Assembly (NCBI GenBank): GCA_035506195.1
Contig: DATJPV010000041.1
Location: 112-64,111 of the forward strand
Reading direction: 5' to 3'
From: Patescibacteria group bacterium
GTDB lineage: Bacteria; Omnitrophota; Gorgyraeia; Gygaellales; Profunditerraquicolaceae
Length of the DNA: 64,000 nt
Shown here: piece by piece, positions 19,626 to 64,000 of the stretch
Layout of the letters: each line of letters opens with the position of its first letter
Numbering within the stretch: position 1 is the stretch's first letter
The notes under the pieces: model-generated
Databases searched by the model: none
Told to the model about the DNA's origin: nothing
The model's input: only the letters and a program-made list of their open reading frames with translations
Translations under genes and position numbers: made by a program

Positions 19626-19633
19626 ACGCACCT

Positions 19634-21349: not shown

Positions 21350-21365
21350 CTTTAAAATCCTCCCA

Positions 21366-24294: not shown

Positions 24295-24383
24295 CTCCGC
24301 AGCCCTACAGCTATACACGCATGGAATTCAAACATTGGAACATTATATCAGATTTGTTTGTAAAACCCAAAGGCGAAAAAAAC

Positions 24384-24414: not shown

Positions 24415-24468
24415 GGTACCGCTCAATTTCCTTGCGGGAAAGGGCCTTTTTAGCAAAGGAGCTTATCG

Positions 24469-25755: not shown

Positions 25756-25756
25756 C

Positions 25757-27211: not shown

Positions 27212-27279
27212 TGTGCTTTCTCCTTCCGCAGTGGCGGACACCAGCCTATCCGATAAGGCTGGGTGTAACAAATAACAAA

Positions 27280-28221: not shown

Positions 28222-28255
28222 GTCCGATTCCCTCTCCTTGTGTGCGCTGCTGTTG

Positions 28256-29035: not shown

Positions 29036-29067
29036 CGTAAGCGCACTCCTTCCCCAGGGTATTCGCC

Positions 29068-29874: not shown

Positions 29875-29889
29875 GGCAATCCTCCTGCC

Positions 29890-31971: not shown

Positions 31972-31972
31972 G

Positions 31973-33963: not shown

Positions 33964-34010
33964 GAAGTAAAGAATTTATCACAAGTTTTGGGGGCGGTCA
34001 AGCTATTTTA

Positions 34011-34373
34011 TCAGGCTCGCAGGGCCCGACCCACTCCCATAAAGTCAACTTTGTCGAAACAGACGCCGACCCGGTATTGCCCCATATCTTGAGGCTCAAT
34101 CCAAGCCACCCTACCCCGTTCATAGAGGGGTTCGTGGCCATCGGGAATCCTCAGCCAGATATCCAGAAACGCATCGGGCCTTAAGGGCTGGTCGACGATC
34201 AGGCTGACTCCTTTTGCGCTCATGTTGACGACTTGACCGACGACCTCTAGGCCTTCCTGAGGGGCCAAAACCCTCAAAGGAAACTGCGCTTGAAAGCGAC
34301 GGAATATCCGCCGGTCATCCATGGCCGGTTTTAAAAAATCCTTTACCAGATGGTCCCACCAGGGCTTATCCAC
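34011..34373 (-). CDS. Stand-alone PilZ domain protein (predicted c-di-GMP receptor)
   Basis: The canonical motifs RRIFRR (RxxxR) and NMSAKG (D/N-x-S-x-x-G) are present. It uses a GTG start and lies 53 nt downstream of the giant ORF stop. Confidence 0.8.
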   Translation of the reverse strand: MDKPWWDHLVKDFLKPAMDDRRIFRRFQAQFPLRVLAPQEGLEVVGQVVNMSAKGVSLIVDQPLRPDAFLDIWLRIPDGHEPLYERGRVAWIEPQDMGQYRVGVCFDKVDFMGVGRALRA

Positions 34374-34426
34374 GCCTGACTCCTTTCTGTTTATTATATG
34401 CCTAAGCCAAAAAATGTCAAAACAGT

Positions 34427-37400
34427 TTACGGGCTTTTCTTCTTCGCAGGCTTAGCCAGCCACACCTTTGTGCCCCGCGAATCGACCCCGTAATGCGCAT
34501 CGGGGTTAAGGCCTCCGTGCCCCGGCACAATAACTACGGTGTAATCCTTAAGGCGGCCGGTGTGCTGCTGATACCATGCAATAATAGTGTTTAGATCGTT
34601 TATTTTCTGCGTAAATGCTTTTTGGCGAAGATTGAACAATCCTTGCAGCGATCCGAATTCGACAAGGAGCGTATCGTAATCCAAAATGCCGGACACCCCG
34701 CCCTCCCACTCTTCGGTGACCACTACCCCTCTTCTGACTATCAGCCTATAGGTTTTTGCTTTTTTCCTGAAGAACACCATCAATCCACCGGAGGTATTAA
34801 GGTGTCCTTCGACGACCACTACGTTCTGGCCCCATTGCTCTTTGACTTGACCGATGAGACTTTCGTGATAACCGTATCCCTTGATATTGCCTTTCGGTTC
34901 ATAAAAATCGTAGCCGTAATACTGCGCAAGCCACTCATAGAGATAGTGGTTGGCGACCGGCTCGGCATAGAACCTTGCCTTTTGTTCTGTGGCGTATGTC
35001 TTGATGCCCTCAAGGATATGCCGGTACCCCTCCGCTGCGGTCTCTTGCGGCGGATTTTGCGCTGCCGGCATGCATAATGCCGTAGCCATAACCACGGTAG
35101 CTATGAATGACACGGGCGAAGAAACTGAACCGGAGGGGCCGCGGACTTCCGCGATATGCGCTTGATCCACCAATGCATCGATGATCTCTTTTACTACCCC
35201 CTTGGCATCAAGCGTACGAATTGTTTCCAGTTTCTGGACAAACACATGAGACCACGGCTTGAACCCTTGCCATACCTCTATGATCCGCTTGCCTTGAGTA
35301 ATAAACTCATGTACCTGGCTATCCGTTAACGAGCCGCCCTCTTCGGGATTTTCAACAATAAGCCGCAGCCGGTTAAATAGATCATCCTCCTCTTCCTTTG
35401 TGGCCAATGCTGCCAGGCTCATCTCGAGCTTGTCCTTGACGTCTTCTCCCATCGGCGAACTGCCGGAGACTGCAAACGAAGGTATCTGTTCAAAAAAACC
35501 TCTCTGCATTGCGTATCTGCCTATGATCTTAAAGGCAAAGTCAAACGAATCTGCGCCAGAATCAAGGTGAGTGTGCCGCAGGGGCGGAATGGCTTTTATT
35601 TTCTCTGTTTCAAGCAGATAGAGTATCCTTACGCCCAGGTCTTCTTCTGCGCGCGTGAAGGGGACGTGCACGATCCTGTCGTATCTGTCGTAGGTATCCG
35701 TATCGATCCATATTTCCTGAATGTCGTCAAGGGACAGGGGAACAATGATCTGCGGGTACGGATCTACTATGCCGGTATATCTATTTCCTACTACCCTTAA
35801 GGTGGCTTTACCTTCATGCAGGAACCGGTTGAAGGTAGCCGTAGAAACGACAAAGATAGCCGGGCTTCTGGAGCGGTCATCAAATTGACCGATCGCATAT
35901 TGATGCACAACCCGGGTCAGGGGGATTTTCCCCGTAAGGTAGTTGTTTAAAATGACTTCGTCTAAACCGTCCCTGCCGTGATAGAGCAGGCCCGGGGCGA
36001 ACTCCAGGGGCTTGTTGCTCATTACCAGCTCCAGTTGTTCGGGCCTGGTGTCGATCCCGTCTTCGGGGTCCAGCAACGCATGATCCTTCATAACCGCCAC
36101 ATCCCCCAGCGGCGAACTGGAATCCGTATCGGAATCCCCGCGTCCTTTAAGCTGCAGAGACATCTGCTCGATCTGCGCGGTTAACAACGCAAGCTTCTCT
36201 TCAATAGGGATGCCTTTGGTAAGGCATTCAAGCGCACCCCGCGCATACAATGATATATGCTCATACCGCACGTCATGATAAAGCGTCGACAGGCGCCTTA
36301 ATTGCGCAATGAAGCTTCTGAGCATTTTTTCAAGAATAAGGACCTCGTTTAACCGTTGCGGCCCCTTGTTTTCCTTCAAGGACGCAAGCTGGCGCTCGAT
36401 CTGCGCTATCCGCTCGGCGGGATCTCCTCCGGAGGCATCTTTCCTTTTCAGCGGCGAGCTGGCGCCGATACGGCTTTCCTTCTTTTTGGCTTCCCCCTTC
36501 CTTTCAAACAAGAGCAATTCGGTCATCGGACAGCCTACCATAGAGAATGCATACAGGAGGGTATCGGGGCTATTATCGGAATCCAATTCATCGTCAACGT
36601 CGATCTGCCTCAAGAGCGCCTGGTAATCCTGCCTAAGGTACTGTTCTATTTCGCCTCTTTTTTTCACGCCTCTTGGTGAGAATAATTTGCTGAACGTATT
36701 TTTTTCATCGTCATTGGTGGGCGTATTGAGCACAACCAAATAACCCGGCCTTGACAAAAACGGGATGCTCATCGATAGCACCTTCCGGAAATCAACGTAA
36801 TTAAGGACATCCGAAAGCGCAATAATATCGAACACTCCCTTATACCGCTGCCAGAACAAGCTTGTATTCCGATGCCGCCCGGAAACGTCAAGAAACCGCT
36901 TAAAGTTACGAGGCAGCCTTAATTGGTCGAGCTTTTCTGCGTCGCCCTTGAGTATAACGAGGTTTCCTTCCTGGCGGATATCTTCGGGAAGGCCGACATC
37001 GACCCCTACTACCCGAGTGCGAGAGCCTGAAAGCTTCAGTTCCGTACTAGCCTCCCCGCCATGACAGCCGATATCCAAGATCAATACGGGGTTACGTTTT
37101 TGCGACAGCCTGAATTGAACGAGGTGTTGCACCAGAACCCTCACTCCCCACTTCCCGCCTGAGTCAGAATAATTCCGCTTCCCGTACAGTTCTTCCCATT
37201 TCCGATGGTTTTGCGCCGGTGAGCTGCTTTTTTGAAAAGCCTCCCGCAAGCCGCGTAACCGTACAAGGCAATTGTTCGCATCCGGGTCCAGCAAGGTATC
37301 ATTCCAGCCGGGCTTCTGACATATCGCCTGAAGTATCGACTCTATAAACAGCTCGATCCTGTCCGGCGGGATCGGATTGCCCCGTGCATAAAGCCGCTGC

Positions 37401-40400
37401 TTCTCTGTCTCCAGAAACTCCAATACTAACGGAAGCCTAGTTTGTATGTACCGCAGGGAAAAGACAGAGTCGCTTTCAAAATCTGTTTCTTCGAAATTAT
37501 CATCCCAGTCAGCCAGCTTGTTGAGCCTCTCTCCCGGTTCGGTCAATTGCGTAATAAAGAACAATTGCGCAGCCTCAACGGACTCGTTGGTGATAAGCCC
37601 CTTGGGAACTTTAGTAAAGTGCATTACCTTTTCCAGGAGCCGGTCGCCAAGCAGTTCCTGCATTAAATGCCCTGCTGCATTAGCGATGTAGAATTCTGCA
37701 TCCTGAGACTTAACGCTTTTGAGCATGGGCCACTGCTTCATTATGCCCCTAGAGGCATCCTCGATCGTATCGTGCGCAACCGCAACGCAAGCGTCTTGCG
37801 TTGCCTCGGATTCAACTTCAAGCTCGGCGATGCCGTATTTGATGACAAGTTTGTTCTGGACCCTTAAGGGGTGAAGAAAGAAAGGCCGGTCCTGGTTCGG
37901 CCCTCTGCCAGGCCGAGCCGTATGCAGCAGGAGGGCAAAAGGAAATGTCCGGGCAATCAATTCTAACGAGGGACGGCAGTACCCTTGTTGCTTGAGATAA
38001 GCAACGGTCGAAGCATAGACACCTTCGGCCTCCAGGGCGTAAGAACGTGCACTTGTTTCGCTGATACCTGCCGGCGGGACCCGGACAAAAGACTGGCATA
38101 GCATATCTAGGAAGTCTTCTCGCGTAGCCGGGTAACCAACGACGATCTCTGCGCAACGGGAATATGCGCTTTTAAAATTATCGGGAGTAAGCCTGGCAGG
38201 AATGATCTCTGCAACCGGACTGCTGGCCTCTTTATTATAGGCATCGCGTGCCAATCGTTGCAGCGCATCCGTAAGCGCCTGGTCGCGCAGCGGCGGTACC
38301 TGATTCCTTTCGAAATTCGTTCCGACAAAACCGCTTGCCTTGCTGATAACCACAGAACGGTAATTCAGGTAGAGAAAAGACCCTTGCGCATAAAGCCCGG
38401 TATGCGTATCGAAACAGCACAAGGCAAACTGCCCTTCTTCTAAGGCCGTGCGCAAAGAATCATCCCGCGTATAATCATCGTAGGGAAGCATAAGCCCTGC
38501 AACGGGCTCGATGGCCGGTGAACTGGCTCCAGAATCAAGCCAAGCCTGGCGTACGATATCCGCGTGTATTTCGCCATACCACCGGCTTCTTTTGGGATTT
38601 ACCAAAAGCCCTTTTTCTGTCAAGCGCCGTAGCAACTGCAGGTCGTCCTTGCTCGGAGAAACCCAGCGCAGCGCGGCAACCTGCGGGTATTCGCATATCG
38701 CAAAGCGCAATAAGGCCTCGCTGACCCCTCCTCCTTCATATTCTGCCCTGGTGCGGATATCGGTTACCGCAAGCCTTTTGCCTGTGCCTTCCGGCCTTGC
38801 CGTCAAATGGCCGAACCATTCTTCACCGTCAAAGAGATCTATGATCAGGCAGCGCTTATCGAGGTTATCGCGCTTGGTAATGGCTACCCCGTAATCCGGG
38901 TTTGCGTCCTCGAGCCTGCGCAACGGTTCTTCCAGGAACGCCATTAACCTCTGCTTCCTGCTGCTGGCGCCTGCTGCTGACAGCGCCTGGGCCTCCTGGA
39001 ACCTGCGTGCCAGATAAGACTGTTTCTTGATAAGCTCCATCAGCGTAGCGGAAGTAAAGCCCGTAAAAGACTTCGGCAGTCGTTCTATCATGTCACGGAT
39101 CATATACAACACTTCATCGGGCCTGACCCCTCCCGGCAAGAACAACCCCCATACCGCATCTTGATCTTCAGTGAGTACGTATTCTATGTGCCGGATAAAC
39201 CAGGAAGGCGTAATATATATCTCATTGGCCTGTCGCAGGGCCTGAGCCAATCGATGCGCAAATGCGGTTTCAAAAGGATCCCGATCCGCTCTTTTGTCGT
39301 CGCCGTGAAATATATCGAAATCATCAACCAGGGGCATCTGGATGGTTTCTAACGCAGTTACCAATACGCTTTTTCTGGCGACGCCAGATCGAATAACAGC
39401 GTTATGCAGCTGGTCTTTGGCCTCCTGCGATAGCCTCTTATCAGAACGCACGCGAGCCGTTTCCATAACCAATGACATATCAAGGCAGGCGTGGCGCAAG
39501 GACCTATTCCCTTTCGTGAACCAAAACGCTGCCTGCAGCGCCCAGCTAGCCCTCCTGAGTTGGTCATGCGCAAGGGCATTGAGAACAAAATGCGTGATCT
39601 CTTCGCTAAACCTGAAGGGCGCCCCTGGATCCAGCATGGCATCTCGAATGCGTTCACGAGCGGTATAATCAATATGCACCAAGGTATCAGTCCCCTCTCT
39701 GTATACCCGCCGGATAAGCCCTCTTGTCCTCAAGATCGACCGCAGAGGCAGGATTTCATCCGCGGCCGAACCAAGCGCGGTGCCGCTTCCGGGCGCGTAA
39801 GAGCCTAAACGCATTTTTATCTGGTTCATCGCCCGCAGTAGGCCGGCTCCGTCATGCTTCCGCAATAACTCGGCGGTATCATACCGGTCACGGCTAACCG
39901 GCGAACTGGAGGCGCTTCCGGCGTATTGCTCGTACGCATCAACCAAGGCATGCGTAAAATCGCCGAAAGGCATGCTGTATTCGCTATCTTTGAAGATCTG
40001 CATGCCTAATGCAAAAAGCACGCGCCAGCTGATCCGGTATCCTCTGGCCCGAAGCGTCTCGATGATTCCTTTCAATGACTGGCGGGCATACACATGCTGA
40101 GGGTCGGGATCCGTTCTTTCGGATTCCTTGAATATGAATGCGATCTCTTCCTCGATTGTTTCCGGCCATCCCATCTCCTCACAGATGCTTAAGGCTCCCA
40201 TGTCTGCAATCATTTCATCGGTCACAAATATGACGGTATCATCCGAAGGATTCATAAAGTTGTGCGGCATCTCATGCGACAAGAATGCGATGAACAGGTG
40301 CTTGGAAAGCTCCCTGACCAAGAGGGCCCCTATTCTAAAAGACGCCCTTGCGTCATCGAAGGCATCGTCAAAATGGGCCCTTTCAAGCACATTCAGCGCC

Positions 40401-43400
40401 ACATTGAAATATTCGCTTTCATTCAACAAGTGGAAGAGGTTCTGATATACGATCAAAATTGCCAGAAAGTATATTTTCAATTCTTTGTCCCTTTCGGGAT
40501 TACCCAAGAGCGTCTTGACGGAGGTATTTTCGTTCAATGCGGCCTTTGCTTCCCAGAGGTACCCTGCGTGGCTGGCGCCCACAAAGTCGGCCATGAACGG
40601 CTGGCTTTGTCGTATGCCTTGCATGATCTCTATGAATGTATCCGCGCCCATGCGAAAGATCCTGTAGAATGCCTGCGTGAACCCGAAAAAGTCATCCCGG
40701 AAAATCCCGCGTAGCTGCGCTTCGCCGATGACCTGCACCAGCCGGCTGAAGACCGCCGGGCTCTCCTGTTCCATGGTTTTGACGAAATGCTCAAACCAAA
40801 AATCGCAGTCCTGCCGGGCTTCTTGCCCGAAAATGCGGATCAGTTGCTCGCGTACGCCTGAAACCGGCGAGCTGGCCTCTGACCGGCGGCCTATATTTGT
40901 TAGCGCTGCGATAGCATCGAAAAAGGGCTCTATCTGGCTGCCATCCGCCAAGAATTGCTTACGGAACAGGTACGGGATGCCAGCCACAGCTGCGTACTCG
41001 TCGATTATCTCTTGGAATGAGGCGGTAATCAGGATGACGGGGATTACGGCAGATTGCACGACCGAGCGGATCCAGCAGGCTAACATAACGCCGTCTCCGA
41101 CCCTCATGTTGAAATCGGTCACCACCAGGTCGAACGGCGTGCCGTTATCTTGGGCCTGCTTGTACATCTGGAAGGCTGGCTGGGCATCTTCGGCTTCGGC
41201 AATTTCGACCCGCTCAATATGAAACTTCACAGGCAACAGCGCAAGTTGGCTGCGTAGTTTTTCTCCCTGGGCCGGATCGTCATCGGCAATAAGTACCCGC
41301 AGGACCCGGGACGGCTCTTCTGCCGGGGAACTGGAACCCGTCTGCGACAAGGATACCCGAACCCGCTCTACCTCTGCCGGGGAAAACCTCCAATTCGCCG
41401 CAACAAACGCCCGGGATTTTATCCCTCGCATCAATCCCTCGCTTGCCCAAGAGCGTACCGTTGCCGGATCCTTGCGCAGGATCTGAGCTGCCCTTTCCGT
41501 AGACAGCCACGTTGACGTATATTTCTTCAAGGTAGCCAGGCCTTTTGCGATGCGCACAAGATCCAGGATATGGATAGCCCTGCCCTCTCTGCCGGTAAAA
41601 CCGAACAGGCTCGGTTGCACAAGATCCGTGCTACGCCCTCCCGCCTCATCGTTGCTCTTGCCAAAAATCTCCTCCACCCATTCTGCGCCGACCAATTGGT
41701 CCAGGTGCTGGGCATAATAATAAAATTCTCCCCTGCTCATCGCTAGCGCGGCCTGCTTAAGCTGGCGGTGGGCCTGGCTTAACGGAACCAAGCATGCTTC
41801 CCGGCGATAGGTTTGTCGTAGCGCCTCTAAAGAAACAAACCATATTCCCCCCACTTTCAGGGCCTGCCATTCCTGGCGGATCTCGGGCTGCTCTAGAAGC
41901 TTGCGGGCCGTATCCTGCGTTATGCCGAGTATCCTGGTCGCCTCTTTCGCAGAAACATAATTCAAAAGTTTATATACCGAAGCGTAGGGGATTTGATACC
42001 GCAAAGGCCTGCCTTGATAACGCTGGCCTACGGGTACTGCCTGGATAAAACCCTGGGCGATGAGTTCTTTTATTTTGTCTGCGCTGCGATGTGTTATTAT
42101 CCTTACCTCTTCCAGAGGATACTCTGCTTTTTCCTGCGGCGGATGCCTTAAGGCAAGTTCATGCGCTGCCAGATACAGGTAAAGATCCTGCCCTGTAAAG
42201 GTGCCTTGCACAATGCCGCGCAGGAGATTCTTCTTTATTACCTTGCCGTCCTGGCCGCACACGAAAATACTAAAATCCTTTTCGAACGTCAACCGCTTGG
42301 GAAGAGGCTGGCCGGTAACGGATACTGCCTCAGAAAGAACAGATGCCCCGGGCCGAGGAGGCAACGACTCGATCGGGAAGTGATAGACCTTGCGGTCTTC
42401 ATGAAACCATATCCTGGCTACAAAACGTTTTCTGGAATATATGATACCGACAACCCTGCCGATGCCGTAGTCGTTATGCACGACTGACGCGCAGCCCCAC
42501 AGATTCTTTAAGAGATCCAGCTTTTTCTCATGCGCAGGCAATGCGTCTGCGGCTTTTGGGGCAGGCTGACGGGTCGGCGAGCTGGCGAAAGAGCCGTCTG
42601 AGGCGTACGCCTCCCATGCCGTGCGGACAATATCATAACCGATCCTGTCGCATTTTAATACGGCGTTACATAACCGGTCCCAGCCGGTTTCCTTTAGGAG
42701 CCCACGCTGCTGCAAATGCCAGGCCATGCCAAGGTCGCCATGATTGGGCCGGCTCCACACAAGACGGCTGGCAAGCGGATGTTCAATGACGGCAAAACAA
42801 AGCAATGCCGTAGCTACGCCCGCCCTCAGGTAGCCTGCCCTGACGCGAACCGAATCGATCTGCAACCTGTTTTTCTGCGGGTGCCATTGTATCGCCAGGT
42901 TCCCGAACCAGCTCTGCGTGTCGTTATCGGATACTGTTATATCCCAGACTGTCTTTTCAATTTGCTCTTCTTCCCGGAAAGAAACAACGTAACCTTGCCT
43001 GCAGACCCCGCGTAAGCGTCCTAGCGGCGGGGATAATAATGAGCGTACTGTTTCTTCGTGAAAAACCGGCGAGCTGGAACTGCGTGCGGCATTTGCGATC
43101 CAGATCCCCCGGATACAAAGAGAGGGTTTACCGTCTTTTTGGGTCACGATGGACTGGCTGTGGAACGTATACGGCGAGCTGTCGGTTGCACATTGTGAAA
43201 CGGGCATTACCGCCTGCGCCTTCACGATAATTGGCCTGAGGCGCAGCGTGAAATGGGGTGTCTGCGGAACAACCGGATTAAGGGCATGGTAGATGCCGGG
43301 GAAAAGCTCTCTGGAGAGGGTTTCGGCACGGGCGTGTGCTGCCTGGCGCTGAAATCCGGCGGCCAGACAAAGCAGCTCTGTGTTTAACCGAAAGGCGATC

Positions 43401-55400: not shown

Positions 55401-58400
55401 TCGATACCGATACCGTCGGGGCTGATAACGATATCCGCCGGATGCGCAGGGTAATCGTTTCTTTCCAGGGGTGTGGCGAGCAGTTGGCGGGCTATGTCGA
55501 CGGCTATGCCGCTGGCTATCGCGCGTTCAAAACGGCTTTTATAGCTACTGTTGAAACGCACGAGTAATTCAGGCTGGCCTTTCTCCTGATCAGCATACTC
55601 AAACAGCTTAGTAACGCATTCAATGAATAGCACATGCGCTTCCGGCGCCTCGTTGTGTGCCCATTCAGCAAGAGACCTTGTGTCCACGCGCATAGAACGT
55701 AACCCGTGATCCTGCAGCGCCTTACTCGCCAGATTAATGAGCATTGTCTTGGCTGTTGCGGTCGGCCCAATAAAGACGATATGCGCCGGCCGGCCGAGTT
55801 GGCGCTGCTCATTGGCAGTAGCTATGCGCACGATCATGGAGGCGAGTTTCTCTATGCCGCTTTCCTGTACGGGCGAGCTGGTTTTACCGCGCTGCCACCC
55901 CGAGAAGGGAGAACGGACCAGGCGGGGGAAACGCGCTATAACCAGACGGCTGCCGAGCTTCGTATCTGGCTGTTGGGTTTCGGAATTATCTATCTTGAGG
56001 GGAGCATATATCTCATCGGCGATTTGGCGCACCCGATCGTTGACGCTATCGGTCACCAGGATCCCGGCATTCTTCAGCGCCTCGATATAGAATCCGATGA
56101 ACCTAGCCCTCACCAGATGGAGATACTCAAATAACACAACCTGAACCATTGTCTTTTTTGAGCCGGAGTCAGAAAGCAAAGATACCGCCTCCTGAAGCAT
56201 GGCGATGCGCGCTTCCCGCAGATAATTGCTCGCCTGCATATGGAATGCGTGACGGGAAAAATCCTTTCCGTCAAAACGATCTGCCTTCGCAAGTGCCTCC
56301 AGATTAAGTTCATCCAGAGACATGCATATGTTTTGGAATTGCGATGCCAAAACAGGAACAAGCACAAAGGCGCGTTCGAAAGCACGGCGAGCCGGCCTTC
56401 TTAAGAGCGCCTCTATTGCCTTTGCGGGTTGAGGATAGGTATATCGCGTATCCGCGTCAGCGCGCTGATGAGCAACAGCAGGACGAATACCTTGCCGGCG
56501 AAAACTTATTTCTTCGAGTTCATGGAATACGAGCGGATCAAGATGGCGGCGGAGCGCGGATGAGAATTCTTCCTGGAAGCTTTCAACGAGGGTCTTTGAA
56601 GAGAAGTATAACGATAGGGTGCCGTTTGTTTTCCGAGCCCAGATGAATGTTGGCGGAGCGCGTGCGGTATTCTGCGTAAGATAAAAGAATCCGACCTTGA
56701 CATCGCCAAAACTTGGAACCGCCCGGTTGAAGGCAGGGACGGCTTCATAACAACCCTTGGCAATGAGTTGTTTTATCTCCTTGATATCCTGTCGGTTCAG
56801 GTTCCCGAGATAGCCATGCCCTTGAGAAACGGGGCTGGCAGCCCTCATGGGGCCTACTCCGTCCCGCGAAGGCTGCTTGACCCGGACCACAAAACGCTCA
56901 ATTAATCTATCGCTCAATAAACGCATGGGATCATTTGAAATATACGAAGGCAACGCAAAATCTCCGCCGCCATCTTGATCAATCGGAGATCTGCCTAATG
57001 CGTCTTGACGCCTTTCGAAAAAACGCGGCAAGCCGTAATGGGTCGGGACAAACTCTGCCGGGTGGAGATAGACATGTGCATCCTTAAACTTTGAGCACAC
57101 GTTACCGTAACTGCCTACGATACCGAAGTGCGTCATCTTCCCGGAAGCATCAAAATACACCACAAGAGAACCTGGCTGTGCTTTTTCTTGCGAGACAACC
57201 TGGAATGACATTGATAATATATCAAGCAGTTGCTGGTAGCCCAATCCGTTGAGCTCAGGGAAGAATTGTTTCACGTACCCCAGACAATCCATGCATGAGG
57301 GCAGGTCCTTGGTATCTTCAATAAGCATTATTCCCGGCAACACCGCAATGCTGTCGAAATCATGCTGTTCCAAGAGCCAATCGATGCATTCACGGATCTC
57401 TTCAACCGTATCGAATAGCGGAGAGCTTGTCCCCGGAAGGCGGCGTACGGTATAGATAAGCGTACCTTTGTTAATATCGTCGGCCTGTTCGCTGAAATTT
57501 CCTACGGCAGTATAACTCAGGCGCTTGCCTAACGAAGAAATATGGAAAATGCCACGGTCATTGTACACAGCCGCATTACGCGAATACGGCAATCCTATTC
57601 CTCCCCAGAAACGTGCGATTCCTTTCCTTGTTGAATATCCTTTGGTCATTGCCTTGCGCAGATCCTTAATACCCTTGCCTAGATCGCGCACCAATATCTC
57701 AAGGAACCCTGCATCGGCAGAAAGCACCACCGCGCCGGGCGCACCGGCATGCACTACGATATTAGTAGCAAGTTCATCAACTATAAAACGGATCGACTCG
57801 TCACCAGAAACAAGCTCATCCTCCCTGTCGTTTACGATTGATTCCTGCGCAAAGCCCAACGATGCGGCAAATGCCTTGATGTGCCGTCCGTATACGCTTT
57901 CCGGGGCAAATTCGTATTGATCGCTGCCTACCGGCAAAAGCAGGAATCCGCCGGAGGCAAACGGCGTGAATCCCTCCCTGCCTGTACGCGCAAGCAACGA
58001 ATCCACCTTCCTGACCACGTGCCCTTCTAGCTCGGGATACTCTGGAAGCGGAGAGCTGGAATACTGTTGAGACGCATTAAACAGCAAAACAATATTCTCT
58101 CCTTCTTTGAATTTTGTGACTCGCAGGCTAAACCGCGTATCCGGCGGATATGCCTGTCCGATACTTTCAACGAGGAAATCCTGCATAAGTGCAGTGGATT
58201 CCCCACGGCCAAGCGCGGTATCCAAAATGACCTCATATTTCATGTCTGGGCCGGGTTTATCCGCCAGTTCATACGGACGCAAGGGAACGTCGTATTGGAG
58301 GCGTGTAAGGTTGCCCCGGCGGATCAACCCTTCGATCCATACATAGAGTTCCTGGAAAGACAAACCGGTGATATCGAAATACCTATCGCCCCTGGCCGGG

Positions 58401-61400
58401 GAACTTGCGCCGTTCAAGGCTGCAATTGCCTGATACGTCGCGCCTCCAACACGGTATGCGGCCACAACGGTTTTAGATCCATGCTCGCTGAATTCTTTGG
58501 CATCGTTTTTAGCGGCAGCCGGATACTTTATGGAACTATACCCACCCAGGATTGCCGGGAATGCCCCTGAAAGAACGTGTTTTCTGAGCGTATCATGAAC
58601 CGGATAATACGGGCCAACATTCGCCAGCCTGATTGACGGCTCGGATATCCAGCGTTGGCGAATATGGGCAAACGCCGGATCGCACCATGCATGCAAGTCA
58701 CAATGCAGAAGGGAAAATCTATTCTCAGCCGGCACGGGAGGATACAGCCATTCGCTTCTTTGAAGAACTTCGCCCGGGCCATATCCTGCCTCGCGCAAGA
58801 CTTGCGCTGCGGCATAGAGAAGTTCGTCCTTACCGTCAATGCCAATGAGCCGCTTGATCCCCAGCCGGAATGCCACGAGCGCCAAGTCTCCTCTACCTGT
58901 GCCGTATTCCTCCGCGGTCATGCGGTACAGATCCTGTTGGCGCATTAAGGCTATAATCGGAACAAGGTATTCCAGGAACATAAGCGGCGCTTTCACGACA
59001 AGCCCCTGAGCCTGAGCCACCAGCCCCCAAGGCATGCTTTGGCGCAAAAGGTCAGCCAGGATGATAACATCATCTACCCTCAGGTACATATTGTTGGCTC
59101 CCGCAACTACTGCCAGATGCTTCTGTGGCGCATCAATCTCTACGGTATCTTGCCTTAAGGACGCAAAAAGTACCTTGCGGATATAATGTTCCAGCTGTTC
59201 TATGGCCCCCTCGGCAGGTTCCTCAACCGGCGAACTGGAAAATCGCGAACCTGGCCGCGGGCCGCCCGAATCCCTGAGTTTACCGGGGGTCAAGACGCGC
59301 ACTATTGTCTCCTGTAATCCTGCGATATACTCAATAGAAGTTGCAGGCCCTAATCCAATCCCTATTACTATATATTCGGCCAAGAGGCGGATAAGCTCAA
59401 TGACATCCGTATCGGGATTTGAAAGCATATCGGAATCAGTGACAAACACATCGAATATCATTACCGGCCCTTTATCGGAAAGGATGATATTCCGGGGGTT
59501 ATAGTCTAGACCGCGCAGATCCTCTATGCGTTCGTATAGGAAGGCGCATACATCATAAATAGTCGTCACGCTTCGTAATAGAGTGGGAATAAGGGCACTT
59601 TGATTAATGAGGGCGCGCCCTTCGGTATACTGCGCCGCCATGTCTCTGATGTATTGATACAGATTCCTGCCTTCGACAAACTTCCATATGAGAATAAGGT
59701 TTCCGATCCTGTCCTGCGTATAAAATCCCTCTACCACGCCCGGCGTTCTGGGCGTAAGCCCGTTAACCGCATCGACAACCTTCTTTATCGCATCGATGTC
59801 TCTGACGTCAGGGCGCCGGGCCATCTCTTGGGTTATTATCTTTATAGCTACCACGTCTGAAGGCTGATTGACTGCGTGCGCTTTCCAGGTATTGGCTGCA
59901 AGTTTTTCATCAAGTATGTAGGTAGCTCCCTCTGGCAGATAGCGCCTCTGTTTAGGCAGGATAACTTTCTGGCCGGGCTTGAAAGCCGGGAAGAGAGAAA
60001 ATGCAGTAAACGATGCGAGGGCTTCGGTGAGGTCCTGGAACACTTTTTCCGGATTCTGCTGGCCGTTTATTTTTATGGTAACCGCTTTGTAATAATCGAA
60101 TACCGCCTGTTCATATTCGCGATATTGCCGGATACGCGTGCGTATCGTGTCAGCATCGTCATCCCCCCTTCCTTCCCTGGGGTGGCCGACGAGCCTGCGC
60201 ATCGACTCCTTGTCGCTGATGTGCAGTTCGATAGCACAATCAATATAAATACCCTGTTCTGTCATATAACGGGCCGATGAGACGGTAGGCGGGTATCTAT
60301 CGAGGATAAACCCTGTCTGCATATCCTTTCGGCTGAGGTAAACCTGCATTATCTTGTCCATAATATCGTCGGGCACAAGCCTGCCGTCCAAGACGCGTTC
60401 TTGAATCACCGCTAGCTCCTCGCCGGTTAAATGGTAGGCTTGCGCTTTAGCGGGGTCGTGCAGGATATCGCGCAGGACCTGCCCCGCAGAAATGTGCGGT
60501 ATGCCTAACAACCGCGCCAGCCTGTCTGCCTGCGTATGTTTTCCGCTCCCCGGCTTACCTTTTATTACGATCCTTCTGGGCATATCTGCGGTGTCTATGG
60601 CTGAGCTGGCATCGAGTTCCGGATATCGCACGAAATATGCGTCTTCCTCCGGGCCGAAGGGAACGAATCCCAATCCCGCATAGAATTCTTCCAGCGCTTG
60701 TTGCCCTTGCGGGTGGCGCCCGAAATAAACAAGATGCGCGAGGATTGTTTCGGTAGCGCCATAGGTCCTTACAAATCTTTCTACGAGAAAATGGCCGTAG
60801 CCTTTTCCTTTGGAAAGGCGGTCTGTTTCAACAAAATCGATGAACTTGAAATCACCCAGATCTTGGCGCCTATCCGAATAACTTAATAACAGGCTGACCG
60901 CGGAATCATTTTCTGCTATATAGTAAAGTTCGTACGAGCGATGGTAACCGCGCAGAGAATAGTCGCCAAAGACCCGGTCTTTGCCGTTCTTCCACTTGTT
61001 TAATAACGATAGCATCTCCTGACGATCGCGGACGACGTGCACGATGGGCACGCTGGTGCTTTCCGCAAGCTGCACTTCAATATCTTCAAGTTCTTCCCAT
61101 AAAGTCGTTGCATGTGCGGATAAAGACAGGGCTTGTGCCTGCCTGCTGAATAATCCTCGGTTAGGCCGCTTATGCCTGGTAGATTGCGTAAGGTCTTGGA
61201 AAATTTCCTTCATTTCGCGGACAAGCTGCGCCTGCCGATCAAGGTTTGCATCCAGCCAAGCCCCGATCACCTGTTGCCTCTTCAGTAGGTACTGCAAAAC
61301 AGAATCCGATTTTACCGGCGAACTGACGGCTGGCAATCGGGTGGAGATTCTATCGATAGGAGCCTTACTTTCCTCGATATCAACTCTAAATTGTGTAAAT

Positions 61401-64000
61401 CCACCCATCGAATGCCAAGTGCCATAGTGCTCGGATATGTATTTATTGCCTGACGTTATCTGCGCGTATTCTTCAATCGCAAGTGTTTTATTAGGATCGA
61501 AATTAGTCCCAAGCAATAATGAATAATCCATATCGATCGTAGTCGGATATATGAGTATGCGCCCACCCGAAGTTGAAACCCGCATTAGTTCTTTGAACGC
61601 CCTCTTCACGAGTTGCTTCCCAGAGATGCCTCCGGGAATACCGAACAACCAAGTCACGATAGTGTAATCAAAACTATTATCTGCATACGGAAGCCCCTCA
61701 TTGAGATCGGCAACCTGAGCGGTTATATCACCGGGATAAGGAATGGGGGAGGCGTCAAGCCGAACATATCGTTGCAATGTCTTAGCCATCCGGTGAAGAA
61801 GCTGTACCCAAGGATCCCCCATCTCCAACACATATCGCAACCATTTCTTCCCGCCGTAGAGTAATTGCGCCTTCAACCAGGCCACAGTAGCTGGATTAAT
61901 ATCTACTATGCTAATGCTGGGTGGCGGGTTCATTAACTTAAAAGGCTCTTGCTGCATCAAAGAGTATTGTAAGCTTTGTGCGGCAGGAATAATCAGTAGG
62001 CGGCGGCTCGCATAAAGAGGCTCACTGACTGGCAGGGATTTCTCATATTCTCGCCAATTAGTAAAAACTGGCCTTAGGGTATTTTCCCCAAATGCGGCAT
62101 AATCAAGTAGATTATTTTGCGATACATCAAGGGAAATGATCTCTTTTTCTTCGGGTGTCAAAAGATTTTTCACCGGCGAGCTAACAGAGGGAACGGTATC
62201 TTGAATATGCTGCAAAAATGCCTTAAGCCCCCGATGGCTGGCCTCTTCCTCTAGTGCCGCCAACGGATTGATTACTTCATACATGCCTGTGCCGCGGCTG
62301 GCCACCCACTCCTGCTGAATATCCATCCGCTTGGCCCAGGCGGGCATTAGCTCCAGCGCATTCATTAACCGCAAACCGGGAAAACCGAATACGGGGGTTA
62401 CCCTGTCATTGCGCATGCCTAAACCTTCGTGGGGCTCAAGCATATAGCGTGTCCCGATCCTGGCCGCAAGGGGGATGATATTACGGCTGACCAAATACGC
62501 AGCAATCAGCACCTTGATCCCGTTGGTATTCTCAGTTGCCGTGCGGTGCGAGAAGGGGTTACTTAAAAGAATGGTTCTGGCGATGTCATTCGCATATGAT
62601 ACATTACGCTGAAAGACATAATCGGCCTTTTTGCCGCGCATGACATTGCCGACCACGGTGCGCATCCGGGATATATCAAAGAAATTAACGTAATCCGCCG
62701 TCATCAATAACCCATCACCATTAAGGTGGCGAGAATCCGATGCCGGGACGTATACGGCGTGCAAGGCGTTGCCGCACGCAAAATACTTATTATTGGCAAC
62801 GTCCACAACATGCGGGTTTCCATCAAAACCATAAAAGCGGACCTTCCAGTCCTGCCACGGCTCACTCAGTTCGATAAGGACTTTGTAAAAACTCTGCACC
62901 ACCATGATTGCTTCCAGAGGATTCTCGCCTAACCCGAATCCCGCAAAGACCATCGTGCGATTCCCATGGCCTGGCTCATTTCTTGCGCGGATGATTCTCT
63001 TAAAATCTGCCTCCATAAGCTGCCTCTGGAACCTATCTTCGCAGTCATCGGTGAAATTAAGATCAGCGGTGTAATCCGCATGCCGGTCTACAATATAATT
63101 CACCAGGCGGAATAAGTCCTCGCCGGTAAATCCGATAGTTTGTAACTCGGGCAACAAGGGGACGATTGCTTCCAAGACGCCCTTCCTTAATTGCTCCAGC
63201 TCCGCCTCCATCGGCGAGCTGGCGCGCCCGTACGATTCGTCTTCCAGGGGCAGATAACTGACTTCTGCGCCTAACTTTGCTATGAGAATTTTTATCTTTT
63301 CATCTTGGAATACGTGCGATAGCATGATTTTTATGTGCGGATTGGCAACGACAAAAATTACCCTTGCGAAATGAAGGACTTCTTTGAGCTCGATATAGCG
63401 CTCCAATTTAGCGCTTATCTCCTTCAATATTTTCTGCTTAACCTCAACGCCGAACCAACTTTTAGTTTCGACGATACACAGGCGGCCCTGCGTATCTGCA
63501 ACTAGGGCATCGAATTGCGTCGCTTCGCTACCGGCCGATATGACCCTATAACCTAGATGCTGCAGGAATTCCAGTGCCCTAAATTCGTTCCATAAACAAA
63601 ACAGGTCGCTGAACGCCCCCTTAGGATGAACCCGGGCAAGCACGTTAGCCGGCAACTCGACTCCCAATCTTTGCATCTTTAGCCATGAAGGGACGATTTT
63701 TTCCAGGAACCTTGCTTCCATAAATGCAGCCCACTGCTGCTCTATCCTCGCGAAGTCTTTTGGAGGGATATCCTCCAATGATCTTCCTGTCTGAAGGCAT
63801 CTGTCTGCGTATTCGAATACCGGCCTGATTATATCGAACCCGGCTTCCCCGAGACCCTTAAGAAGATTGTAATGAATATACATGGAATTCCTGCCTGCGT
63901 GAATCAATGCAAAACCCATCGTAAAGACATCATTGGCTTCTCTCAAAAGAACGACTAATCTGCGCTGTTGTAGGGTGGGCCTACCGGAAGAAAAGAGCAC
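34427..64000 (-). CDS. Giant multi-enzyme modular protein (at least 9,857 aa; the N-terminus lies beyond window position 64000) of about 30 unrelated catalytic or regulatory modules joined by Ser-Ser-Pro junctions
   Basis: The minus-strand frame is uninterrupted for the whole 29.6 kb. In 55% GC DNA a stop would be expected about every 20-25 codons. Recognisable enzyme motifs occur throughout (see sub-features). The stop codon TAA is read at about 34428-34430 by my count, whereas the track gives 34427. Confidence 0.85.
   Translation of the reverse strand: [9857 protein letters not shown]
36471..37214 (-). other. Giant-ORF module: class I SAM methyltransferase
   Basis: It has [15 protein letters not shown] (motif I) and VVGVDVG. 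Confidence 0.5.
37227..38215 (-). other. Giant-ORF module: HD-domain phosphohydrolase resembling the (p)ppGpp hydrolase domain of RelA/SpoT
   Basis: [12 protein letters not shown] (the His of HD motif I) and [12 protein letters not shown] (HD motif) are present at about 37745-37780. The spacing matches the SpoT HD domain. Confidence 0.55.
40874..41323 (-). other. Giant-ORF module: stand-alone response-regulator receiver (REC) domain
   Basis: It has [18 protein letters not shown]...[15 protein letters not shown]...IPVILITAS. Confidence 0.6.
43727..46105 (-). other. Giant-ORF module: radical SAM domain followed by a class I SAM methyltransferase
   Basis: The CX3CX2C motif is [16 protein letters not shown], encoded at about 45790-45815. 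The downstream methyltransferase has [13 protein letters not shown] (motif I) and [11 protein letters not shown]. Confidence 0.65.
46115..47833 (-). other. Giant-ORF module: GT9-like (heptosyltransferase-type GT-B) glycosyltransferase
   Basis: [38 protein letters not shown] resembles the WaaC/WaaF N-terminal motif (irlsalGD...P...lr..fP.a.i). Confidence 0.45.
47843..48364 (-). other. Giant-ORF module: metallophosphoesterase-like
   Basis: It has [10 protein letters not shown], with a GHxH-like motif V. Support is weak. Confidence 0.35.
48890..49969 (-). other. Giant-ORF module: response-regulator receiver (REC) domain followed by a class I SAM methyltransferase
   Basis: The REC part is [25 protein letters not shown]...[21 protein letters not shown]...AILMTEK. 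The methyltransferase part is [12 protein letters not shown] and [14 protein letters not shown]. Confidence 0.6.
53246..54001 (-). other. Giant-ORF module: Pol-beta-like nucleotidyltransferase
   Basis: It has [21 protein letters not shown] (G-S ... D-x-D). Confidence 0.45.
54011..55329 (-). other. Giant-ORF module: GT4 (GT-B fold, retaining) glycosyltransferase
   Basis: [13 protein letters not shown] is present, and the EX7E region is [24 protein letters not shown]. Confidence 0.7.
55342..55870 (-). other. Giant-ORF module: P-loop NTPase
   Basis: Walker A is [13 protein letters not shown]. A hhhhE-like Walker B is HVLFIEC. Confidence 0.45.
57428..58048 (-). other. Giant-ORF module: GHKL/HATPase_c-type ATPase (anti-sigma-factor / histidine-kinase-like)
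   Basis: It has an N-box-like segment [14 protein letters not shown], a G1 segment [11 protein letters not shown] and a G2 segment RFWGGIGL. Confidence 0.45.
59237..61316 (-). other. Giant-ORF module: GNAT acetyltransferase, adenylate kinase and protein-kinase-like domains in one junction-bounded segment
   Basis: The GNAT motif A is [17 protein letters not shown]. The adenylate kinase motifs are [35 protein letters not shown] (about 60541-60600). The kinase-like motifs are VAIKII (about 59830-59860), DYNPRNIIL and MIFDVFV. Confidence 0.6.
61326..62174 (-). other. Giant-ORF module: class I SAM-dependent methyltransferase (Methyltransf_11-like)
   Basis: The motif I-like region is [11 protein letters not shown]. 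The post-II motif is [14 protein letters not shown] (LPF-D-SFD). Confidence 0.5.

Follow-up and report, generated by a model that had tools for sequence, protein, structure and literature searches.

The minus-strand open reading frame that fills the far end of the window (the whole 64,000-nt stretch of DNA analysed here) is a string of at least 33, and probably 39, gene-sized cassettes, comprising enzymes, receiver domains and DNA-binding proteins that are mostly unrelated to one another, and these are separated by a short recurrent junction peptide that is restricted to the module boundaries and occurs far above chance frequency. We lean, with no great assurance, towards reading this arrangement as polyprotein-like, with the junction being the probable processing site.

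The frame extends without a stop over 29,571 nt (9,857 codons), for which ln P is approximately -473 given three stops among 64 codons, and is still open at the window edge (64000). As the source contig measures 66,375 nt and its end itself cuts the giant gene, at most 2.4 kb is left past the window. When genomes and metagenomes were scanned with the first 892 aa (N-terminal) and the last 3,300 aa (C-terminal), no match came back and the 5' end stayed unextended; homologous-protein searches with aa 1-5000 and aa 1-892 as queries gave no match either. The ENA assembly contig L002, an independent one, agrees with window positions 31098-39140 at 99.95% identity with zero indels, and the modules common to the window and its syntenic orthologue show dN/dS of 0.13-0.17 at dS of 1.0-1.6; the single frame of over 29 kb, as proposed in a preliminary description of this DNA, is thus real, and purifying selection acts on its modules.

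The tripeptide Ser-Ser-Pro is found 32 times in the frame versus 1.9 times expected (P ~4e-28), every time between modules, within the consensus [small]-Ser-Ser-Pro-[Val/Ala/Leu]-(Glu), written AGC TCG CCG. Its codons are almost always AGY-TCN-CCG, the first Ser being AGY in 31/32 junctions (P 1e-13) and the Pro being CCG in 29/32 (P 7e-9), with the junction at the end of M32 (Table 1) being the sole one spelled TCT TCG CCC. These 32 junctions delimit 33 segments, and six further decayed ones raise the number to 39 (median 239-255 aa), which bears out the "about 30 modules" of the preliminary description; that description also speaks of junction-bounded segments, with the junction itself, its codon conservation and its role as a breakpoint having gone unreported there. 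No Pfam domain crosses a junction, low pLDDT is seen where M31 ends and where M33 starts, and conservation around the junctions fades past ~20 nt. Outside the giant gene the motif is at chance level (4 versus 4.2 expected), which rules out a Chi-like or uptake-sequence genome-wide signal; an altered genetic code with sense-codon stops was rejected too, as AGC, TCG and CCG are used freely within modules and the neighbouring genes have standard stops.

Table 1. Giant reading frame, its modules and junctions, and the adjacent gene (window positions; "junction" gives the Ser-Ser-Pro codons that end the module)
Feature	Residues (aa)	Positions	Strand	Content	Junction
Giant ORF	9,857 codons + stop (34427-34429)	34427-64000	-	5' end past window and contig	
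M01	1-263	63212-64000	-	no family; very weak NERD-like match	63212-63220
M02	264-609	62174-63211	-	no family	62174-62182
M03	610-895	61316-62173	-	class-I SAM methyltransferase (Methyltransf_11, E 8e-4)	61316-61324
M04	896-1591	59228-61315	-	composite; adenylate kinase 60083-60562	59228-59236
M04 decayed junction ASSA		60599-60607	-	precedes adenylate kinase part	
M05	1592-1868	58397-59227	-	methyltransferase, weak match	58397-58405
M06	1869-1984	58049-58396	-	no family	58049-58057
M07	1985-2194	57419-58048	-	GHKL / anti-sigma-F-like ATPase 57497-57796	57419-57427
M08	2195-2710	55871-57418	-	N-terminal NlpC/P60-like (E 0.1), DCLGY...H motif by eye	55871-55879
M08 decayed junctions		56984-56992, 56831-56839	-		
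M09	2711-2890	55331-55870	-	weak P-loop (GPTATAKT)	55331-55339
M10	2891-3333	54002-55330	-	full-length GT4 (Glycos_transf_1, E 9e-35)	54002-54010
M11	3334-3588	53237-54001	-	no HMM match; nucleotidyltransferase-like GS..DxD by eye	53237-53245
M12	3589-3799	52604-53236	-	no family; transmembrane-like helix 52634-52690	52604-52612
M13	3800-4364	50909-52603	-	no family; decayed junction ASSS 51488-51496	50909-50917
M14	4365-4677	49970-50908	-	no family	49970-49978
M15	4678-5040	48881-49969	-	REC receiver 49682-49939 + SAM methyltransferase	48881-48889
M16	5041-5212	48365-48880	-	no family	48365-48373
M17	5213-5389	47834-48364	-	no HMM match; GHTH by eye	47834-47842
M18	5390-5965	46106-47833	-	no family	46106-46114
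M19	5966-6764	43709-46105	-	radical-SAM-like CxxxCxxC 45776-45835 (Pfam E 0.087)	43709-43717
M19 decayed junction SSSS		44687-44695	-	followed by SAM methyltransferase	
M20	6765-6943	43172-43708	-	paralogue of M08 C-terminal part (BLASTP)	43172-43180
M21	6944-6978	43067-43171	-	35-aa mini-segment flanked by two junctions	43067-43075
M22	6979-7142	42575-43066	-	GNAT-like; paralogue of M26 C-terminal part	42575-42583
M23	7143-7559	41324-42574	-	HTH_17 / excisionase-like DNA-binding; 75% identical to L011	41324-41332
M24	7560-7712	40865-41323	-	REC receiver; missing in L011	40865-40873
M25	7713-8034	39899-40864	-	no family; missing in L011	39899-39907
M26	8035-8495	38516-39898	-	N-terminal part common with L011 (56%); C-terminal GNAT	38516-38524
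M26 decayed junction GASSR		38960-38968	-	also L011 homology breakpoint	
M27	8496-8595	38216-38515	-	with M28, common only to P0002	38216-38224
M28	8596-8928	37217-38215	-	HD-like, HPLRV...HDTIED by eye; 59% identical to P0002	37217-37225
M29	8929-9183	36452-37216	-	SAM methyltransferase (Methyltransf_23)	36452-36460
M30	9184-9297	36110-36451	-	no family	36110-36118
M31	9298-9516	35453-36109	-	ADP-ribosyltransferase fold, Tpt1 / DarT-like	35453-35461
M32	9517-9629	35114-35452	-	no family	35114-35122
M33	9630-9857	34430-35113	-	Amidase_3-like fold, PGHGG motif; 66% identical to L011; start signal-peptide- or transmembrane-like (35057-35113)	
PilZ-domain gene		34011-34373	-	directly downstream of giant gene	

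About 12 distinct families tile the visible chain, without any of them prevailing in copy number, and the HMM searches called for in the preliminary description did find enzymatic domains, with roughly half of its domain list being confirmed in this way: adenylate kinase (E 4e-26), GT4, two REC domains, the HTH (as HTH_17), at least four methyltransferases (five or six of class I are present) and, weakly, the GHKL ATPase. Radical SAM, HD, P-loop, nucleotidyltransferase, metallophosphoesterase (GHTH) and PD-(D/E)xK (NERD), as well as NlpC/P60, stand at the level of motifs seen by eye or of E > 0.05, while the protein-kinase-like domain, GT9 (M18) and "at least 4 GNAT" found no confirmation (one weak GNAT and its paralogue were found). 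That the modules are unrelated was upheld, as the all-against-all BLASTP of modules yielded only two paralogous pairs and Tandem Repeats Finder detected no tandem repeats in the frame; together with the lack of repeat Pfams, this also speaks against a giant repeat adhesin or RTX surface protein, just as the lack of C/A/T or KS/AT/ACP domain matches does against an NRPS/PKS megasynthase, both of which had been discounted from the outset. Several modules look like whole proteins: adenylate kinase, GT4 and REC are present full-length, another protein (P0064) holds a complete ECF-type sigma factor within one SSP-bounded module, and M31 homologues form one module in ~60 other long proteins and also stand alone (265-278 aa), the M31 profile search having returned stand-alone homologues only.

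The record is labelled "Patescibacteria group bacterium"; the host is, judging from sequence similarity, probably a member of Omnitrophota, to which the preliminary description had already pointed, as the neighbouring GH130 and MFS proteins cluster at >=90% with proteins of NCBI Omnitrophota MAGs and the best genome match of M31 is an Omnitrophota MAG. The neighbourhood includes MnmG, RNR, NAD synthase and a mannan locus, with downstream genes for sugar metabolism, and the PilZ gene keeps its position beside the giant gene in three lineages. No tRNA genes were found, the 34 kb downstream contain no recombinase or integrase, and PADLOC and PHROGs gave nothing specific, leaving a defence-system or phage origin without support from either.

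Comparison with relatives points to the junction as the place at which cassettes are exchanged. The flanks of the syntenic L011 are 82-84% identical to the window, and yet the two giant genes have no more than M23, M33 and the N-terminal part of M26 in common. L011 homology ends 6 nt past the junction of M23, its DNA homology returns with the very first base of the M25 junction, and the third break lies 2-3 aa before a junction; the decayed GASSR junction of M26 is also a breakpoint. Entire cassettes thus distinguish L011 from the window gene, with the breaks at junctions, which demonstrates the exchange joint for one relative. Another genome with the same synteny, L022, encodes a 12,506-aa product at the corresponding position, the C-terminal 1,142 aa of which, to which the comparison was limited, have no module in common with the window, and the SSP-type P0002 (7,270 aa) has counterparts of M27 and M28. 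Other giant proteins have junctions of their own (RSEVR, RAEVR, RRSPSG, TSPAE, EDGPGA and APADA), and the M31 family, which ends at SSP in the window, ends with RSE in both P0041 and P0045 and with RRSPSG in P0075; each giant gene or lineage has a junction motif proper to it. The peptide at the junction, and not DNA alone, is under selection, as P0068 and L022 show (see below). Giant frames with no junction motif (L008 and L004) exist as well, which tells against the polyprotein-like reading.

The giant frame has no internal translation starts: a Shine-Dalgarno sequence with ATG/GTG follows 3/32 junctions (2.6 at random positions) and Met follows 11 (versus 8, P 0.15), neither being enriched, which rules out starts following junctions. 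In the polyprotein-like reading, the gene would be translated whole, a partner specific to the lineage (a protease being the likeliest) would recognise the junction and free the cassettes as separate proteins, and some of these, e.g., the amidase-like last module, might then use their own N-terminal signal peptides. In the M33 family, signal-peptide-like starts do lie directly behind junctions (the TAT-like SRRAFI of P0033 among them), and signal-like segments are about twofold, i.e., modestly, enriched after junctions in 14 giant proteins (10/190). The codon uniformity within one gene would be a by-product of cassettes being copied or exchanged via the junction, by short-homology recombination or gene conversion, and no separate nucleic-acid signal would then be needed. 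A broader and more speculative view, towards which we stay on the doubtful side, is that of "punctuated cassette arrays", in which a bacterium would keep dozens of genes as one frame, the lineage-specific punctuation peptide being the cut site that yields separate proteins and its DNA the joint for cassette gain, loss and swapping; such an array would, just as tentatively, combine a cellular polyprotein strategy with integron-like cassette turnover.

Rather unlikely, in our opinion, is an uncleaved mega-protein, i.e., an enzyme string or membrane-tethered scaffold in which the junction would be a linker for docking or for phosphorylation/glycosylation of Ser/Thr-Pro. The protease searches came out empty, with nothing but a very weak NlpC/P60 match in the visible 9,857 aa (Pfam, NCBIfam and PDB), no peptidase families in the scans of L011, P0021 and P0064 and no peptidase among the recorded Pfam matches of P0023, P0068 and P0069; M33, which co-occurs with SSP-type genes, was rejected as the cognate protease, as it resembles a cell-wall amidase, not an endopeptidase. 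Moreover, Ser/Thr-Pro is present in many junction types, the frame has glycosyltransferase and putative kinase-like modules (the latter label, for the C-terminal part of M04, which has no family, being that of the preliminary description only), the transmembrane segment that follows the last junction might do no more than put the amidase-like domain on the outer side of the membrane, and cleavage is an open question in the literature (West-Roberts et al. 2023, 10.1101/2023.11.21.568195). Against this, RAEVR and APADA junctions are devoid of Ser/Thr, complete sigma factors, single REC domains and a TAT-type signal peptide would be hard to use unreleased in a chain of >10,000 aa, and plain linkers are not normally conserved in sequence over dozens of unrelated joints.

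Somewhat less probable still would be a MARTX-like effector-delivery toxin, whose cassettes would be exported and released in prey or host cells instead of serving the producer. The ART fold of M31 does resemble DarT, Tpt1 and ADP-ribosylating toxins, the amidase-like M33 would suit cell-wall attack, the complete relatives P0023, P0068 and P0069 begin with Sec signal peptides, a predation role has been proposed for Omnitrophota giants, and MARTX toxins both autoprocess and exchange effector domains; however, the visible part and the downstream region are free of RTX repeats, CPD and secretion genes, housekeeping-like cassettes are numerous (ADK, REC, HTH and methyltransferases), the start of the SSP-type P0002 has no signal peptide, the PADLOC and PHROGs results offer nothing notable, and the N-terminus of the window gene is missing.

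An improbable option is that the junction acts on nucleic acid, either as an in-frame integron-like DNA recombination site or as an RNA processing/pause site, with the peptide being incidental. Codon uniformity does far exceed amino-acid needs, not only in the window: the P0023 junction reads CGC TCC GAG GTG CGG at 11-15 of ~19 sites, and that of L006 has the codons GCTCCCGCGGATGCCG. AGC TCG CCG recurs in three SSP-type genes (window, L011 and L021) despite dS of ~1 or more, for which selection on the peptide is hardly a sufficient explanation and which gives a nucleic-acid role some room; the cassette-exchange breakpoints fall at the junction, and P0023 sits between two large serine recombinase genes. 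On the other hand, the 14-aa junction of P0068 is kept as a peptide, with synonymous sites free to vary, and L022 spells (A)SSP as TCT TCG CCC, not AGC TCG CCG, from which it follows that the junction peptide, and not DNA alone, is under selection. Hairpins do not gather at junctions (1/21 near one versus 10% expected), there is no Rfam match, on which ground catalytic RNAs and introns were rejected, and the ~20-nt reach of the conservation, the motif not being enriched outside the gene and the recombinase-free 34 kb downstream argue in the same direction. A GCTC nucleotide core common to the junction types was discarded, being too short to tell from chance.

An artefact is scarcely credible, whether the frame be taken for a chimera of the assembly, for a pseudogene in decay or for an open stretch that does not code, since, even with the source contig coming from a short-read MAG and a Logan contig ending near the gene end (window position 34115), the stop-free length and dN/dS given above are joined by 4.7 kb being identical in the independent assembly, orthologous frames open over 3,314 and 1,142 aa as far as read, the L022 counterpart being called as a single product, strong Pfam domains lying in frame, and 9-nt repeats being too short to join contigs at k-mer 141.

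Giant frames account for a large part of Omnitrophota genomes, and they may act as one protein or as many; according to West-Roberts et al. 2023 (10.1101/2023.11.21.568195) the cleavage points are unknown, and this blocks structure prediction and functional dissection. A recurring, lineage-specific junction offers an objective way of cutting such frames into units for annotation and folding, as well as a precise proteomic prediction, namely, protein termini at the motif, and exchange of cassettes at the joints may be why giant genes are "sequence-unique" between close relatives. Should processing prove true, no cellular polyprotein system of this size would have a precedent.

The window gene is a member of the Omnitrophota-type multi-enzyme giant frames, a kind already reported as class 1 of Nielsen & Lui 2026 (10.64898/2026.06.07.730766) and as the glycosyltransferase/methyltransferase-rich giants of West-Roberts et al. 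2023 (10.1101/2023.11.21.568195); the view that it belongs to no known class therefore falls, as the same Pfam set is found in both papers, and the junction is the added result, neither text mentioning junction motifs, linkers or cassette exchange. Shared features are a length of >=10 kaa, many Pfams tiling the chain with none dominant, sequence uniqueness between genomes, and the repertoire listed by Nielsen & Lui 2026, namely, PF08241, PF02518, PF00583, HD, PF00534, PF00072 and PF04055, all present in the window gene (PF02518, PF00583 and PF04055 weakly, HD by motif only). According to West-Roberts et al. 2023 (10.1101/2023.11.21.568195), every full-length giant has a SecA DEAD-like domain and many transmembrane helices, whereas the visible 9,857 aa, from which the N-terminus is missing, have only ~2 transmembrane-like segments, no SecA match and no C39/S8 peptidase; the SSP-type relative P0021 carries SecA_PP_bind. 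MARTX toxins are likewise large polypeptides with a variable set of unrelated enzyme cassettes, which recombination swaps from strain to strain and which are set free when the inter-cassette linkers are cut (PMC6315884, PMC5555677), but the window gene (visible part and downstream region) lacks RTX repeats, CPD (Peptidase C80) and T1SS genes, has 10x more cassettes and has a fixed junction motif instead of X-Leu sites, cleavage here being putative. Polyvalent proteins, for which built-in peptidase processing has been proposed (Iyer et al. 2017, PMC5512222), also unite disparate enzymatic domains in one polypeptide; they have 2-15 domains and reside on mobile elements, whereas the 33-39 modules of the window gene lie on a chromosome among genes for housekeeping and mannan utilisation, with no zincin peptidase, PHROG or PADLOC signal. 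With viral polyproteins it shares one frame with no internal starts and a short, lineage-differing consensus at each protein boundary, but it lies on a cellular chromosome, its protease was not found, and its accessory cassettes are unrelated and turn over rapidly. In polymorphic toxins and chromosomal integrons (with species-specific attC), too, a short lineage-homogeneous sequence marks the swap point of unrelated cassettes. Integrons have attC hairpins between separate genes, used by IntI, while the window gene has no junction hairpins and no integrase in the window; polymorphic toxins, the demarcation motifs of which include VENN of CdiA and PxxxxDPxGL of Rhs, have a single C-terminal swap point, whereas the window gene has dozens of in-frame joints within one reading frame.

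The long minus-strand frame flagged in the preliminary description is confirmed: it runs stop-free from position 64000 to a stop codon at 34427-34429, i.e., over 29,571 nt (9,857 codons), with the second-longest frame in the window reaching 2.8 kb and the ln P of such a run (at 3 stops per 64 codons) being approximately -473. At NCBI the source is held as a third-party MAG record, a contig 66,375 nt long (proteins HTY45731-HTY45756, locus tags VMD52_...), and, as it extends at most 2.4 kb past the window while the frame runs off the window, it is the end of the contig that cuts off the giant gene, N-terminus included. Contig L002, from an independent ENA assembly, matches window 31098-39140 at 99.95% identity with zero indels, so that the final 4.7 kb of the gene, including six copies of the junction peptide discussed below, are reproduced. 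Tandem Repeats Finder returned no tandem repeats, and Rfam had no match anywhere in the window. A Logan unitig-type contig (L001) from SRR8879134, one of the source samples (SRR8879134/31, ERZ27256510), ends at window position 34115, about 310 nt short of the giant-gene stop codon, and short Logan contigs cover only the last few hundred bases of the gene, a hint that strains differ in it or that its coverage is low in that sample.

The ORF is followed downstream by a PilZ gene, a mannan/manno-oligosaccharide cluster (GH113, GH130, GH94, MFS, PMM, GFO/IDH/MocA) and the housekeeping genes for MnmG, class II RNR and NAD synthase, the setting of a chromosome and not of a phage or plasmid; PADLOC and PHROGs added nothing. 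The cluster, whose synteny is kept in relatives L010-L012 and L022, encodes a GH94 phosphorylase, two to three GH113 enzymes (one with F5/8 type C domains), a GH130 phosphorylase, an MFS/GPH symporter, a HAD protein, a xylose-isomerase-like TIM barrel, two GFO/IDH/MocA proteins, a LacI-like protein devoid of an HTH, and PfkB. Its phosphoglucomutase/phosphomannomutase has four PGM_PMM domains ending near aa 540 and a C-terminal extension of ~400 aa without a family (PGM/PMM being a Pfam common within Omnitrophota giant proteins), and an unusual fusion of PilZ, winged HTH and a ROK-family sugar-kinase/regulator is also encoded in the window. The label of the record, “Patescibacteria group bacterium”, is probably wrong: with its class II RNR, MnmG, large glycan locus and 52% GC, the gene content is unlike that of CPR, the GH130 and MFS proteins cluster at 90% with several MAG proteins listed by NCBI under “Candidatus Omnitrophota”, and, of six genome loci found with an alignment of module M31 (modules are numbered M01 to M33, N- to C-terminal), two are Omnitrophota MAGs, the best match among them. 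The earlier pointer to Omnitrophota was, on the evidence of these clusters and of that best match, right.

The chain is punctuated by a short peptide, S-S-P, present in 32 copies vs 1.9 predicted from composition (P ~ 4e-28), with small residues before it and V/A/L/M (often then E/Q) after it, spaced 35-799 aa apart (median 255), and none of the Pfam domains crosses an SSP. A position weight matrix added five decayed junctions (ASSA, GRSP, AASP, ASSS, SSSS), and a sixth, GASSR, was read directly where a block of homology to the syntenic locus L011 ends, which together with the intact copies results in about 39 segments. As all-against-all BLASTP found only two paralogous module pairs, the junction was not spread via tandem duplication of modules.

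Pfam, NCBIfam and PDB sequence searches leave roughly half of the chain unassigned to any family; for the rest, the adenylate kinase, GT4, receiver, HTH and SAM methyltransferase domains first read by eye were recovered by HMM, while the kinase-like and GT9 domains proposed with them found no support. Full-length adenylate kinase, GT4 and receiver domains, stand-alone M31 homologues, and a complete ECF-type sigma factor within one SSP-bounded module of the related protein P0064 show that modules equal whole proteins. Two family-less modules were modelled from alignments of homologues: M31, a widespread family without a Pfam model (motif LYHGRDGLD ... SPAIFV ... DPYP ... EIWI), is predicted to have an ADP-ribosyltransferase fold, and M33, likewise without a Pfam model (conserved NHYLY, EGHLN and PGHGG motifs), a predicted Amidase_3-like one. 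M31 also occurs as a stand-alone gene (~270 aa; homologues of 265-278 aa) in high-GC MAGs (L005, L007, L009), adjoining amidohydrolase, PLP-enzyme, M19 dipeptidase and transporter genes, and M33, among long matches, is found mostly in SSP-type giants, usually near the C-terminal end and behind a signal-peptide-like segment.

Features of the window and its giant ORF, junction motifs of related giants, and module blocks in common with locus L011
Feature	Location	Details
PilZ/winged HTH/ROK fusion	window 11613-13055	480 aa
Manno-oligosaccharide/mannan utilisation cluster	window 14229-30927	minus; plus 24469-25755 (+)
Phosphoglucomutase/phosphomannomutase	window 21508-24318	936 aa
PilZ gene	window 34011-34373	120 aa
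M33	window 34430-35113	
M31	window 35453-36109	
Adenylate kinase, complete, short-type	aa 1147-1306	E 4e-26
GT4 glycosyltransferase, complete		E 9e-35
Receiver domains		two; Pfam/NCBIfam/PDB searches
HTH_17/excisionase-like DNA-binding segments		Pfam/NCBIfam/PDB searches
Class-I SAM methyltransferases		five or six; Pfam/NCBIfam/PDB searches
GHKL/anti-sigma-F-like ATPase		weak match
GNAT		one, weak match
Radical SAM, HD, P-loop, nucleotidyltransferase, metallophosphoesterase, NERD, NlpC/P60		motif only or E > 0.05
RSEVR junction	P0023, P0041, P0045	
RAEVR junction	P0067	
RRSPSG junction	P0075, P0069	
[R/K]TSP[A/V]E junction	P0083	
TGxTTPGxEDGPGA junction	P0068	
APADA junction	L006	
M31-family module end	window	...IPSFAVSG-SSP
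M31-family module end	P0041	...IPAFRR-RSE
M31-family module end	P0045	...IPSFEIKDAR-RSE
M31-family module end	P0075	...IPHFMGRRQFSR-RSPSG
L011-window common block	M23	75% aa
L011-window common block	M26, N-terminal part	56%
L011-window common block	M33	66%

With the last 1,200 aa as query, an exhaustive HMMER search returned 109 related proteins (P-numbers), many of which are 2-7 kaa fragments of giant proteins, and all but one of which match over a single stretch (the exception, P0005, has two matches, i.e., two M31 copies); M31 homologues are present in ~60 of them, at varied positions. The nearest relative, P0002 (7,270 aa), has only M27 and M28 in common with the window and contains SSP 26 times vs 1.6 expected, and other giants each have their own over-represented motif, spaced like modules, with no junction motif found in giant ORFs L008 and L004. 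As one and the same module family ends at different junctions in different genes, the junction is a property of the host gene or lineage and not of the module. In P0002 (aa 359, 1976, 2211, 2453) and in P0033 of L021 (aa 1861, 2114, 2131), the reading frame runs through a perfectly palindromic DNA element, TCACACTCCCGGGGTGTGA, adjoining SSP junctions and translates it as “SHSRGV”; in P0033 the element lies just ahead of an ATG that is followed by a TAT-type signal peptide. No copy of it was found in the window, and it resembles a once-intergenic hairpin or REP-like element that has come to lie within an ORF. Locus L019 (GCA_043825275.1, JBDRSA010000025.1) carries two giant ORFs head to tail, one of 3,687 aa (complete, with a signal peptide) and, 64 nt on, another of at least 4,204 aa.

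Syntenic loci were reached in JGI metagenomes via the PilZ gene immediately downstream of the giant ORF. Although the downstream genes of L011 are collinear with those of the window (82-84% DNA identity), the last 3,314 aa of its giant gene have only three blocks in common with it. Between M23 and M26, the two modules of the window (475 aa) face 2,298 aa in L011, made up of five different SSP-bounded modules (nucleoside hydrolase, sigma-70 region 4, HD, PCMT, B12-binding plus radical SAM), whereas from the N-terminal part of M26 to M33 it is the window that holds 1,290 aa (GNAT, M27-M32) vs 22 aa in L011. Homology (of DNA or protein) ends 6 nt past the junction at 41324-41332, restarts at the first base of the one at 39899-39907, and ends 2-3 residues ahead of the decayed one at 38960-38968, with positions within 15 nt of a junction making up ~4% of the gene. 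In L022, a third lineage of the same synteny (product of 12,506 aa), the last 1,142 aa have no module in common with the window or L011. The dN/dS of the shared modules (0.13-0.17) makes the locus a hypervariable array of selected cassettes at a conserved chromosomal position, and the alignment with L011 shows the junctions to be the joints of the array, at which cassettes are turned over. The small PilZ (c-di-GMP-binding) gene directly follows the giant ORF in all three lineages, in which the giant-gene modules differ, and encodes 128 aa in L011 and 235 aa in L022.

Is one protein made, or many? A lineage-specific partner probably cuts the chain at the junction, a putative processing analogous to that of viral polyproteins and MARTX toxins, as sigma factors and single receiver domains would serve little purpose inside a chain of >10,000 aa, and as signal-peptide-like segments directly follow junctions. 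Such a segment stands right after the junction in the M33 family of four or five genes (TAT-type, SRRAFI...AWA, in P0033), and across 14 giant proteins they follow 10 of 190 junctions vs 2.7% at random and 1% upstream (a twofold enrichment). No protease was found in Pfam/NCBIfam/PDB searches of the visible ORF or in scans of L011, P0021 and P0064, which counts against cutting, and an uncleaved scaffold is a serious rival; an effector-delivery role is possible.

A purely nucleic-acid role of the junction is disfavoured, even though its DNA is strikingly uniform (AGY-TCN-CCG): Ser1 is AGY in 31/32 (background 35%, P 1e-13), Ser2 TCG in 20/31 (27%, P 1e-5) and Pro CCG in 29/32 (41%, P 7e-9), the preceding codon is C-ending in 26/32, and the gene has the motif 33 times in sense orientation but not once in antisense, with a chance-level frequency outside it (4 vs 4.2 expected). 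L021 (P0033) and the syntenic orthologue L011 use the same AGC TCG CCG, despite a window-L011 dS of 1.0-1.6, and in P0023 the junction CGC TCC GAG GTG CGG has 12-15 nt identical at 11-15 of ~19 sites. Against such a role, the 14-aa junction of P0068 is kept only as a peptide, with Gly and Pro codons varying freely, and the more distant L022 writes its (A)SSP as GCC TCT TCG CCC (the single odd window junction, at aa 9627, is TCT TCG CCC). Together, these data show purifying selection on a lineage-specific junction peptide, along with homogeneity of its codons within a gene or lineage, the pattern left by concerted evolution or by the spread of a founder copy; they give no indication of a universal nucleic-acid signal. 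P0023 itself is a complete, RSEVR-type gene (4,509 aa, signal peptide) flanked on both sides by large serine recombinase genes (Resolvase/Recombinase/Zn_ribbon_recom; L017/L018), an arrangement suggestive of carriage by an integrative element. Codon reassignment is ruled out, as AGC, TCG and CCG are used freely within modules. Conservation around junctions does not extend past ~20 nt, hairpins are not concentrated there (1/21), Met is not enriched after them, and an SD core with an in-frame ATG/GTG follows 3/32 vs 2.6 for randomly chosen positions (a GGAGG-type site is present in roughly half of the window's ordinary genes); the modules thus bear no sign of separate translation, and internal initiation is absent.

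Neither West-Roberts et al. 2023 (10.1101/2023.11.21.568195), who stated cleavage points to be unknown, nor Nielsen & Lui 2026 (10.64898/2026.06.07.730766), with 5,761 ORFs of at least 10 kaa, uses the words linker, junction, fusion or motif with this meaning, and searches for Omnitrophota and polyprotein, or for conserved linkers in giant proteins, returned nothing relevant; no description of the punctuation signal was found in the searchable literature, and it makes the long-standing question (one protein or many, and cut where) directly testable. The gene itself is real, under selection and of a known kind, the preliminary description having been mistaken in placing it outside any known class: its architecture is exactly that of the Omnitrophota giants of the former authors, rich in glycosyltransferases, methyltransferases, HATPase_c and radical SAM, and of the “multi-enzyme metabolic clusters” defined by the latter, whose commonest Pfams are PF08241, PF02518, PF00583, HAD/HD, PF00534, PF00072 and PF04055.
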